In this document: one piece after another, positions 48,820 through 51,015 of the stretch
Layout: the number at the start of each line of letters is the position of its first letter
Numbering within the stretch: the stretch's first letter is position 1
Sequence record: OP778610
Strand: one strand, 5' to 3'
From: Escherichia phage W70
DNA: 64,000 nt
Made by a program: the position numbers and the translations under genes
The notes under the pieces: generated by a model
Seen by the model: only the letters and a program-made list of their open reading frames with translations
Told to the model about the DNA's origin: nothing
The model's database searches: none

Positions 48820-49950
48820 CATGTCCATCGGTGCGACTCTCCCAACCCTATTAATCCCTTCCCCATTTGGATCATCATAACTTACCTCATCTAATCATTA
48901 ATCTAATCCCCTTTGGAATCTCTCCCCCACAAATCTAAACTAATCTGATAGCTTACCATAACATAATCCACAAAGAAAGAACTATTTTGCCCACAAAGAA
49001 AGGCAGTTTTAAAGAGATACCATTGCCAGAGTATGGAGGTGGCGCGACCGTAGGGAGCGACACTATAAAACGAGTATACCCCTCCTACCGCTATGCGGTC
49101 ATCGGTGATAACCGATATCGTTACACGCTATCTGTTCTCTTCGTTTCCTCGTTTTATAGTGTCTATATGTAGTAATCTTTTATTCTTTGTCAATACATTA
49201 TCGAAGATAATATTGAATTATTTAATGCTTTGTTATTCATATAAAGTGAATAGCTAGTCAATAGGAAGGCCGTTAGTGTGACCACACAAAGAGGCTATGC
49301 ACCACAAAGAGAGGCCGTACTTGCCCACAAAAGGAGCAAACAAGCAAGGCGGTACGCCAGTTTGCTAATGAGCGTAGCTCTTTTGCTAGACAAAACTCTC
49401 TTCTCTCTTCTTTCCCAAAATAAATTTTTTCTTGCTTTTATTGCCAGAGTATGGCGGGGCGCTCAGGCTATTGATGGCCCTGATGGAGTCGCTCCTGCAC
49501 AGTTGGGATAGTTCATCGTTGGATAGTCACAAGTTGGTATTATTCTTCCCACTAGTTGGAACAGGCCAGAACTGGCGGGGCTTGGAGTCGCTCCACTTGT
49601 TGGACGGAAGAAGGGCGCTTGCAGTGCGTATAAGTTGTATTATGTTAAATGCAGATCGAAATCGGTATTCTAAACCAGATTCAGAAGTCAATAGAAATCT
49701 TTAACTTTATTGTTGGGGCAGCACAACATTTTTCTTGACAAGTCGAATCAAAGATGTATTGTGGATTGAAAATAAATGAAGATAATGCTTGACTTCTTGG
49801 ATATTTTGAAAACATCGGACCCCCTCCCCCTCCCCCACGGTCGCCGTGCCTGGCAGCAGTATCGATACGCTAGGATATTTTAGCCCCTACTGGACAAGAC
49901 ACCCCCCCGTCAGTTATAATGGGGGTATACCTATAGAAAAGTAAGGAGGT
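48820..49950. repeat. non-coding repeat-rich region
   Basis: CCACAAAGA(A/G)AG repeats; about 3 copies of TGCCAGAGTATGG-GG-GCGC...GAGTCGCTCC; RTTGG(A/T) series 49495-49720; C-tract at 49822. Confidence 0.6.
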
Positions 49951-49954
49951 TGTA

Positions 49955-50443
49955 GTGGTAATGTTGAGGGTTCCCTCTTCGGACGAATTGGAGCTAATAA
50001 AAGAATACCTTGAACTGTCAGACGCGTCACCGACAGGACTTGTGTGGAAAAAGAAACCTAGTGCAAAAGTTTATGTTGGGGAGCCAGCTATGCTCTGCAT
50101 AGATAGCGGAGGCTACTATCGTGGAATGTTCAAGAAGAAAGGGTATGCTGCACATCGTATTGTCTTCTATCTTTACCACAACCGTTGGCCTACTGGGGAG
50201 ATAGACCATATAAATGGGGACAGGTTGGACAACTCACCCCCTAACTTGAGGGAAGTTGACAGATCTTTTAATTCAGCTAATAGGGGTAGGGGCTACCAAG
50301 TGTTGGACAATGGTACATTCCTAGCTCAAATAAGGAGACAAGGTAAAACATATAAAAAAACATTCAATACGGAAGAACAAGCCATCCGATGGAGAAAAGA
50401 GATGAGACTATTCCTTTACGGAACAGATATTTGGCAGCAGTAA
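49955..50443 (+). CDS. free-standing HNH endonuclease
   Basis: GEIDHINGDRLDNSPPNLR HNH-type motif; AAGGAGG RBS upstream; track start is GTG at 49955, in-frame ATG at 49961. Confidence 0.65.
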   Translation: MVMLRVPSSDELELIKEYLELSDASPTGLVWKKKPSAKVYVGEPAMLCIDSGGYYRGMFKKKGYAAHRIVFYLYHNRWPTGEIDHINGDRLDNSPPNLREVDRSFNSANRGRGYQVLDNGTFLAQIRRQGKTYKKTFNTEEQAIRWRKEMRLFLYGTDIWQQ

Positions 50444-50449
50444 TGTAAA

Positions 50450-50480
50450 GAAGGACACCCTAAAAGGTGTCCTTAATTTT
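50450..50480 (+). terminator. intrinsic terminator
   Basis: aggacacc-ctaaa-aggtgtcct then T-run. Confidence 0.55.
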
Positions 50481-51015
50481 TTGGCGGGGAGGTATAAAAC
50501 ATAAAAAGTGGAGTGACTAAACTGGAAAGATCGAAGCGACTCGCTAGGCAGATGTTCCTCCGTGGCATGAATGCCACTCTGTGGACAATAGGCATTACTC
50601 TGTAGACAATCGGAATAACATGAAGTAGGTCAGTCTCTTCAGAAAGTCTTGACCATTGTGGAAATATATGAAGTAATCCGTCAACCAAAATGGTTTACAT
50701 TGTGGAAAGTAAACCAAAATGGTTTAGATGTGGGTAAACAGATGTGCCTCGACAGGCAAAGTGGTGTGTCTCAGTAGGCCAACAGTGGTTACTCTTTAGG
50801 CAAACTACCTGATTTTGGGAGGAACTGATATTTGTGGGAATCGTTGTACGATATTTGGGCATTATTGTATGCAGGGTACAACAGTTTGGAAGGACGATAT
50901 AGTTTGGTGGGCACAACATTTTTGTGGAGGGTAGAACATTTTTGGGGCATATATGTTTGGTTGCAATCCAGATGCAAAAAGCACCCACTTTTGGGGTGCT
51001 CTCTGTAGTTCAGGA
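50481..51015. repeat. non-coding GTGG-motif iteron region
   Basis: Repeated tgtggaca / tgtggaaa / tgtgggtaaaca / cacaacatttttgtgg and duplicated aaccaaaatggttta. Confidence 0.55.

Follow-up and report, generated by a model that had tools for sequence, protein, structure and literature searches.

A predicted direct terminal repeat with inverted junction motifs in the non-coding gap between convergent gene arrays of an rV5-like coliphage

The terminal repeat and concatemer junction of phages T7 and T3 are reportedly described in the work of Dunn and Studier in 1983 and of Chung, Nardone and Hinkle in 1990. In these phages, a short non-coding terminal repeat containing phased short repeats is accompanied by flanking repeat arrays and by promoters located by the ends, an inverted repeat situated to the left of the junction forms a hairpin as concatemers are processed, and the repeat is duplicated in the course of packaging. 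In T5, a kilobase-scale non-coding region serving as the injection stop signal, dense in both direct and inverted repeats, is situated near the chromosome end. Poly-C stretches are present in the terminal repeat of T3-like phages (PMC5923468), and the Pakpunavirus or PaP1-like Pseudomonas phages (Vandenendeviridae) possess fixed ends, with a direct terminal repeat (DTR) of 1165 bp in phage Adele (PMC12846349). In the Mydovirus phage KPP-1, two-fold read coverage was recorded across positions 116,316-116,829, and PhageTerm assigned a 514-bp DTR and T7-type packaging (PMC9862379). The locus considered here occupies positions 48790-51015 of a 64,000-nucleotide (nt) stretch of Escherichia phage W70 (record OP778610; hereafter the window), which derives from an rV5-like coliphage of the Vequintavirinae. 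This gap separates convergent plus- and minus-strand gene arrays and is probably the concatemer junction of a phage whose linear virion DNA carries a short DTR, predicted by homology to consist of the 462 bp at 49389..49850.

The segment at 49389..49850, a single copy of which is present in the circularly opened record, and both of its boundaries are homologous to DTR ends that have been measured or annotated in related phages, as was apparent from a seven-genome alignment and a junction table of 12 genomes. The first 462 nt of the record of phage UPEC06 are identical to its last 462 nt (an exact match of prefix and suffix), the record start, GACAAAACTC, corresponding at its G to window position 49389 and the record end, ...GTCGCCGTGCC, at its C to 49850. 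The KPP-1 interval with doubled coverage is oriented in reverse and lies inside the homologous non-coding gap, where it includes the conserved block AGTGCGTATAA..TTATGTTAAAT that matches window positions 49623-49651. Phage DP carries identical annotated 514-bp repeat_regions at 1-514 and 145135-145648, with boundaries as in KPP-1, and the right boundary is exactly where the KP12 sequence has been opened; in end position, UPEC06 agrees with all three of these Mydovirus records. For the relative Jab, the call is one of length, a 475-bp DTR from CheckV (PMC13538427). A feature of this kind is ordinary for such phages and is annotated in the sister genus, and is unannotated in the clade to which the window belongs.

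When the junctions were read 5' to 3' into the repeat, on the top strand at the left and on the bottom strand at the right, both boundaries were found to carry TGYYW/RRC (the slash marking the cut position) in inverted orientation in 12 of the 12 genomes examined, which represent at least five lineages. The left junction motif in the window, TGCTA/GACA (49384..49392, plus strand), has its predicted cut between 49388 and 49389. The right junction motif, TGCC/TGGCA (49847..49855), is a perfect 9-nt palindrome that reads TGCCA/GGCA on the bottom strand, with its predicted cut between 49850 and 49851, and forms the core of the sole stretch that blastn still matches in Certrevirus. Throughout the 64-kb window, TGCYWGRCA occurs at two sites only, 49384 and 49847. 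The left and right members of the pair were TGCTA/GAC and TGCCA/GGC in both the window and UPEC06, TGCCT/GGC and TGCCA/GGC in CR3, TGCTA/AAC and TGCTA/GAC in KPP-1, and TGTTA/AAC and TGCTA/GAC in DP. The end is located at the same motif position in all three genomes with reported ends (KPP-1, DP and UPEC06), and the site-to-site distance across the 12 genomes ranges from 432 to 514 nt. The end sequences predicted for the window are ...TAGCAAAAG for the complement of the left end and ...GCCGTGCC for the right.

The region as a whole matches five Escherichia Vequintavirinae phages (A73, A7_1, A5-4, LTH01 and UPEC06) at 87-97% identity, three of which belong to the recently described genus Septuagintavirus (PMC11370258). 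The predicted repeat is 91-98% identical to four relatives and a hairpin element at 49022-49163 is 92-100% identical to four, both being approximately as conserved as the shared minus-strand genes, whereas most of the adjacent plus array is unshared; between them, the A+T-rich and CCACAAAG zone (49164-49388) contains indels and is reduced to 69-70% identity in A7_1 and A5-4. At a greater distance, the only stretch found by sensitive blastn to be conserved in Certrevirus phages of Cronobacter and Pectobacterium was the 83 nt at 49799-49881, which contain a C-tract and TCGCCGTGCCTGGCAGC. A non-coding gap of 1.5-1.7 kb, its blocks ordered alike, separates convergent arrays in Certrevirus, Mydovirus and Salmonella phage SSBI34. 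Alignment of the repeat across genera revealed a common succession in which the left motif is followed by a start rich in pyrimidines and A/T, a zone of iterons, GCCAG..CTGGCGGG (missing from Mydovirus), an invariant AGTGCGTATAAG.TGTATTATGTTAAAT, then GTCAATAG, GATATTT and the right motif, ahead of which this clade and Certrevirus have a C-tract. The motif of the iteron zone is lineage-specific, being GTTGG in the window and CATTCTCA or ATGAGAAT in Certrevirus and Mydovirus, where an ATGAGAATCAT-like iteron occupies the place equivalent to the GTTGG series. Two probes for further homologues were discarded: a flanking 132-amino-acid (aa) protein proved to be confined to the five close relatives, and a scan of IMG/VR with TCGCCRTGCCTGGCAGC returned 15 loci, 11 of them fortuitous hits on unrelated, GC-rich contigs.

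Breaks between assembled sequences are common in regions of doubled coverage. Both the A73 record and that of UPEC06 had been joined or opened inside 49389-49850 or at its edge, the PBES 02 record starts around 200 nt to its left, and no record in the phage collection was opened at the Certrevirus motif sites. The A73 record (OP778609) additionally carries, at around 3830-3935, some 105 extra nt inside the predicted repeat (alignment columns 756-860, window position around 49457), consisting of a fragment encoding NVEKIDLDWSTYDTSY and, after it, a duplicated 50-nt stretch. The encoded fragment is part of a 380-aa protein (53542-54684, minus strand) with repeated glycine-rich segments that appeared beta-propeller-like by eye. 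The A73 locus tags wrap at the extra segment (A73_1 and A73_264), which looks like a contig-join artefact placed exactly at the second copy of an 18-nt repeat. The SSBI34 record (MZ520832) was opened within the right-hand iteron array, with GACTCTTTAGGCA present at both record ends as a 13-nt overlap and repeated at least five times around them; this phage has no C-tract and, where its right junction is predicted, retains a perfect palindrome of 13 nt, GGTGCCTGGCACC.

Several distinct elements were located inside the predicted repeat. An A+T-rich start (49389-49440) is succeeded by ATTGCCAGAGTATGGCGG (49440..49457, plus strand), the second copy of the 18-nt direct repeat, the first copy of which, ATTGCCAGAGTATGGAGG (49022..49039, plus strand), lies in the left flank and is invariant in all six relatives. 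Five GTTGG iterons follow on the plus strand (49502, 49518, 49533, 49555 and 49599; 49502..49603), overlapping a block, GCCAGAACTGGCGGGGC...CTCCACTTGTTGG (49565..49603, plus strand), in which GCCAG..CTGGCGGG is common to Certrevirus and SSBI34 and the CTCCAC.TGTTGG part is common to Certrevirus only. The most conserved block of the repeat, AGTGCGTATAAGTTGTATTATGTTAAATG (49623..49651, plus strand), is present in every lineage examined. Beyond it, a sigma-70-like promoter, TTGACA-16-TATTGT (49735..49762, plus strand), is directed towards the right boundary and is near-invariant in the clade (one change, in UPEC06) but is not conserved in other genera. A C5TC5TC5 tract (49820..49836, plus strand) lies 10 nt ahead of the right junction motif; it is kept in Certrevirus and absent from SSBI34 and Mydovirus. 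Two readings of this part were rejected, namely pairing of the C-tract, in RNA or DNA, with the G-rich block downstream across the HNH gene, which amounted to only 7-9 nt of low-complexity complementarity, and a sigma-54 promoter in CTGGCA..., the spacing of which was judged a misfit on inspection.

The left flank is dominated by a long inverted repeat at 49059..49163, the arms of which, GACACTATAAAACGAG (49059-49074) and CTCGTTTTATAGTGTC (49148-49163), form a 16-bp perfect stem enclosing two small inner hairpins. The element folds better than shuffled sequences (z of -2.65 and -2.18), and both strands behave alike. Perfect inverted repeats of 18-21 bp but of other sequence are its counterparts in phiTE, in CR3 and SSBI34, and in KPP-1, so that the stem reads GACACTATAAAACGAG here, GACCAATAGAAAAGGGTAA in phiTE, GACCAATAGAAAACAGGT in CR3 and SSBI34, and AGCGACACAATAACACGGGAG in KPP-1. 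In all four lineages, 16-21 bp of perfect Watson-Crick pairing include no G-U pair, the inner hairpin covaries among Certrevirus members, and in every lineage 190-375 nt separate the inverted repeat from the terminal repeat to its right (around 226 nt here). A role at the level of DNA is favoured for this hairpin, because both strands fold equally, G-U pairs are lacking and no promoter lies upstream. Chung, Nardone and Hinkle are said to have proposed a hairpin intermediate for T7 concatemer processing in 1990, and a likeness of the left hairpin to that structure is put forward purely as a hypothesis by analogy. The hairpin is followed by a poorly conserved stretch of 78% A+T (49164..49262) containing a weak sigma-70-like site at 49187-49214.

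The earlier note on this DNA, drawn up from its letters alone, had listed several families of short repeats in the gap, and all of them were present where it placed them and far above chance relative to the rest of the window; since the patterns were defined after inspection, the P values given here are optimistic, although the excess amounts to orders of magnitude. That the repeats might be artefacts of this assembly was ruled out by the presence of these blocks in five independent relatives. On the left, CCACA[AC]A[AG][AG] has five plus-strand copies in 48968-49325 as against three in the other 63.6 kb (Poisson P ~2.5e-11), comprising two CCACAAAGAAAG iterons 23 nt apart (48968..49002, plus strand; degenerate copy at 48927) and three CCACA(C)AAAGAG iterons at spacings of 20 and 23 nt (49282..49336, plus strand), which differ in both copy number and sequence among relatives. 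Copies of ATTGCCAGAGTATGG occur at 49022 and 49440, with a looser third unit at 49564, while GAGTCGCTCC occurs at 49486 and 49585 and as its reverse complement, GGAGCGAC, at 49054. The five GTTGG copies are spaced at 16, 15, 22 and 44 nt across 49502-49599 (P ~1.6e-7).

On the right, a family that the earlier note had not listed, CTCnnTRGRC, has five copies (50540, 50577, 50598, 50770 and 50792), and the looser pattern CTC-N2-3-YAGGC adds another at 50748; neither pattern has any further copy elsewhere in the window. The resulting six CTCnnTAGGC-type iterons (50540..50805, plus strand) belong to a family that is kept in Certrevirus and expanded in SSBI34 as GACTCTTTAGGCA. They are interspersed with a TGTGGR and TTTGGG series (50580..50930, plus strand), in which TGTGGR accounts for six copies across 50580-50923 (P ~4e-8). 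CCACA switches strand across the gap, from plus on the left (48927-49325) to minus on the right (50584-50927). The series encloses a duplicated GT(C/A)AACCAAAATGGTTTA (50680-50729), with AACCAAAATGGTTTA itself at 50683 and 50712, and four copies of a 20-nt unit, ACAACATTTTT (50870-50944), likewise missing from the earlier list; copy number within the series varies among relatives. The majority of the listed families are positioned outside the predicted terminal repeat.

On the preferred reading, replication of the phage would generate head-to-tail concatemers with one 462-bp copy (49389-49850) between successive genomes. A packaging nuclease would recognise TGYYW/RRC, once at each edge of the segment and in inverted orientation, and would introduce nicks on opposite strands approximately 462 nt apart, an inverted motif pair with ends at the cut position being what staggered opposite-strand nicks would leave. 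Strand-displacement or fill-in synthesis would then duplicate the segment, such that both chromosome ends would carry a copy, as in T7-type packaging. Both gene arrays would be transcribed towards the chromosome ends and would stop at terminators ahead of the junction. The flanking arrays and the conserved hairpin may be accessory parts of the packaging junction: GTTGG and, to the left, CCACAAAG, together with CTCnnTAGGC and TGTGGR to the right, are candidates for binding by the small terminase or by some other protein that recognises the junction, and the left hairpin may assist in duplicating the repeat. We infer from the relatives that the ends in this phage are the same, and it is on that footing that the nicking model and the roles suggested for the iterons and the hairpin are proposed.

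A number of considerations weigh against this assignment. The ends given for this phage are predicted from homology rather than observed, and what the iterons, the hairpin, the C-tract and the promoter within the repeat are taken to do amounts to a proposal. The authors of the UPEC06 sequence used PhageTerm to assess termini (PMC8928767), but the library employed was of the Nextera type, which is poorly suited to the calling of termini, and the outcome of PhageTerm is not given in the paper. No homologous gap was located in the first 50 kb of rV5, where only a 50-nt convergent junction was found. In addition, phiTE shares the motif pair and conserved blocks yet has been published as terminally redundant and circularly permuted on the basis of restriction and Bal-31 analyses, with a sub-molar fragment that may reflect a pac site and with generalised transduction of plasmids (PMC3475682), and rV5-like phages have been called circularly permuted or headful by PhageTerm (PMC8407724, PMC13211470). 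These reports suggest instead a permuted, headful-packaging phage with a single pac cut close to the palindrome, the 'repeats' of 460-514 bp then being a product of the handling of a pac signal by PhageTerm or an assembler. Repeats that flank the cleavage site are also known from the pac of phage P1. However, one preferred end is what a pac site gives, not a pair of fixed ends that enclose doubled coverage, the KPP-1 coverage doubles across exactly the 514-bp interval (PMC9862379), both boundaries agree in three records, and an inverted motif pair at conserved spacing in all lineages is unexplained by a single pac cut. Relatives exhibit two fixed boundaries, making the pac explanation unlikely here, though it may hold for Certrevirus in view of the phiTE report. 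The two motifs of Certrevirus are 443 nt apart (2609-3051 in phiTE, 2610-3052 in CR3), and a 443-bp terminal repeat is therefore predicted there, contrary to the published permutation of phiTE.

The repeats and composition of the gap also bear on functions other than packaging. The earlier note had regarded the structure as typical of replication origins, packaging sites or physical genome ends; the packaging and genome-end options were supported by homology to the Mydovirus and UPEC06 ends and by the conserved motif pair, whereas an origin was neither demonstrated nor excluded. An origin, alone or beside the ends, would comprise iterons bound by an initiator, A+T-rich segments for unwinding (49164-49262 and 49389-49440) and promoters that activate or prime replication, as in T7 or T4. 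Direct repeats clustered by an A+T-rich element were indeed found, with five copies of CCACAAAG around the 78% A+T stretch, in direct orientation at a spacing of about two helical turns; sigma-70-like promoters lie within the non-coding DNA, the iterons differ by genus at equivalent positions as expected of a co-evolving DNA-binding protein, and in T7 both origins and promoters adjoin the terminal repeats. Such an arrangement is no hallmark of origins: the arrays on the flanks could equally well serve an origin as its iterons, a reading compatible with genome ends, and initiator binding and terminase binding are indistinguishable on the present features. No initiator gene was identified and the flanking proteins gave no Pfam match, the A+T-rich and CCACAAAG zone is the least conserved part of the locus, and convergent arrays with a peak of cumulative GC skew at the site form the pattern of a terminus, not an origin, in bacteria; an origin is accordingly rated improbable, though by no means negligibly so. 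Somewhat less credence still is given to a cluster of small non-coding RNA (ncRNA) genes between the two terminated arrays, which would express from promoters of their own, as structured RNAs, the hairpin element (49022-49163) and the reiterated GCCAGAGTATGG units. The better-than-shuffled folding of the element, compensatory changes between lineages in its closing stem and inner hairpin, and the functional ncRNA encoded elsewhere by phiTE speak for such a cluster, but the absence of G-U pairs and the equal folding of both strands would suit a hairpin or cruciform of DNA no less well, and no convincing promoter precedes the element in any lineage. A search of 48700-51100 listed to E 10 returned no Rfam family above 18.4 bits or below E=2, and the gap contained no tRNA or tmRNA. 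The phiTE ncRNA, pseudo-ToxI, an anti-defence RNA with repeats, came into consideration since phiTE has the gap too, and was rejected as a counterpart, its locus (106,714-106,772 of phiTE) being outside the gap. Finally, copy number of the repeats varies among close relatives, parts of the gap are deleted in A73 and LTH01, and an HNH gene has been inserted, all of which a non-functional spacer would accommodate, one composed of decayed genes and slippage repeats between terminated arrays and serving as a landing pad for a homing endonuclease. Such a spacer is highly improbable given that phages of Escherichia, Pectobacterium, Cronobacter, Salmonella and Klebsiella have the gap in common, along with the order of its blocks and several of the blocks themselves, and that repeat and hairpin roughly equal the shared minus-strand genes in conservation.

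The only convincing gene within the gap (49955..50443, plus strand) begins some 80 nt past the right boundary and codes for a protein with the catalytic domain of the HNH_3 homing endonucleases (PF13392, E 5e-13, 48.8 bits against a cut-off of 24.8). Its distribution is sporadic: it is absent from A73, A7_1, A5-4 and LTH01, the four nearest relatives to span the site, from CR3 and DU_PP_I and from most Certrevirus, yet is present at the same site in phiTE as phiTE_097, with 58% identity. Homology to A73-type phages ends after TGGCAGCAGT (49858) and resumes near 50560, and between these points, the flank at 49858-49930 included, the window resembles Certrevirus rather than its nearest relatives, as expected of co-conversion during homing. 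A promoter-like TGGACA-18-TATAAT (11 of 12 positions; 49891..49920, plus strand), also found in phiTE, lies upstream of the gene, and a bidirectional terminator-like hairpin (50451..50474) lies after it. The right edge of the insertion is marked by a G-rich block, TTTTGGCGGGGAGGTATAAAAC (50479..50500, plus strand), which occurs also in the A73 group, Certrevirus and SSBI34. The gene is regarded as a selfish mobile insertion beside an essential conserved target and not as part of the packaging machinery. The 11 nt that follow the right junction (49851-49861, TGGCAGCAGTA) recur exactly at 50432-50442, at the 3' end of the HNH gene (GATATTTGGCAGCAGTAA, ...DIWQQ*), and phiTE carries GATATTTGGCAGG at the matching place; the recurrence may be due either to chance or to a trace of cassette insertion.

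The non-coding parts of the gap measure 1165 nt on the left (48790-49954), after the end of the plus array at 48789, and 572 nt on the right (50444-51015), ahead of the last gene of the minus array (51016-51414). The description in the earlier note of a non-coding gap around one HNH gene was confirmed, in that the small open reading frames (ORFs) of the gap, considered as possible coding genes and rejected, are interrupted by frameshifts or stops in at least one close relative. The least clear case is a 90-aa ORF at 49432-49704, which is intact in A7_1 and UPEC06 and broken in A5-4, A73 and LTH01. Terminators end both arrays ahead of the junction. The plus array is closed by a hairpin, GGGGCCGC-AATA-GTGGCCC (48797..48816, plus strand), with compensatory changes in the alignment of relatives, and the minus array by an intrinsic terminator read from the sequence, GCACCC-CAAAAGT-GGGTGC followed by TTTTTGC (50974..50999, minus strand), which the relatives retain, A7_1 having one stem variant that is compensated. 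Near-identical hairpins, GGCCGCAATAGCGGCC at 48798-48815 and GGGCCGCAATAGTGGCCC at 48489-48504, follow the last two plus-strand genes and vary in loop and stem with compensation among relatives (GCAATAGTGGC as against GCTATTGCGGC), as is typical of a terminator module used more than once. Beside the predicted right chromosome end, the final 2 kb of the plus array (46800-48789) constitute a hypervariable set of small genes of which 7-21% could be aligned to the four closest relatives, as compared with 88-100% of the minus-strand genes across the gap. Elsewhere in the window, a group I catalytic intron was detected at 21456-21721 on the minus strand (Rfam RF00028, 70.4 bits against a gathering threshold of 50), as a full-length match to the model.

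It is tentatively suggested, as a possibility that falls well short of an expectation, that all gap-bearing Vequintavirinae, phiTE included, package unit genomes with a repeat of 430-515 bp, formed by staggered nicks at an inverted pair of one conserved motif of approximately 9 nt, TGYYW/RRC, with a hairpin 190-375 nt to the left folding back in the duplication of the repeat and with genus-specific iterons that mark a co-evolving protein of the junction. The cross-genus inverted cut-site motif, the perfect hairpin, the lineage-specific iterons and the conflict with the phiTE data may be new. Were the scheme correct, it would provide a large group of myoviruses with a cut site defined at the level of sequence and a testable model of processing. 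The terminal-repeat assignment itself offers a concrete cut-site motif and candidate recognition elements for packaging in the Vequintavirinae, phages of which see wide use in therapy and biocontrol work. It would fix the chromosome ends of a coliphage clade whose records now start either with the terminase gene or at an arbitrary position, and would account for the recurrent assembly breaks and join artefacts in the region. It also draws attention to a conflict in the literature between permutation (phiTE and rV5-like phages) and fixed ends (Mydovirus). Chromosome ends matter for phage engineering, for the prediction of transduction risk and for genome comparison.

In comparison with known systems, the Mydovirus DTRs of KPP-1, DP and KP12 resemble the predicted repeat in the location of the gap, in both junction motifs and in the position of the end within the motif; they share with it the blocks AGTGCGTATAA..TTATGTTAAAT and GATATTTTG, a long perfect hairpin on the left and G-rich tracts on the right. 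They differ in that the repeat is 462 nt here as against 514 nt, the iterons are GTTGG as against ATGAGAATCAT-like, C5TC5TC5 is present in the window and absent from the Mydovirus repeats, and the HNH gene of the window lies around 80 nt past the right boundary; moreover, the Mydovirus ends have been measured, whereas those given here are predicted. The T7 and T3 junctions are similar in the layout of repeat, flanking arrays, promoters and left inverted repeat, but there is no similarity of sequence, and the present locus, known from sequence, belongs to a 142-kb myovirus with host-type promoters and a junction motif that occurs as an inverted pair. The Pakpunavirus phages are related through their capsid, portal and terminase proteins, being structural relatives of the Vequintavirinae, and have a repeat 2.5 times longer, the likeness being one of proteins and of fixed ends. 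The T5 region differs in lying inside a 10-kb repeat and in being tied to two-step DNA injection, which is not known from the Vequintavirinae. The HNH gene, for its part, is like phiTE_097 and other phage HNH_3 genes in its domain, insertion point, sporadic distribution and possession of its own promoter and terminator, and differs from HNH_3 homing endonucleases in being situated in non-coding packaging DNA and not in a gene or intron, its activity and target site being putative.

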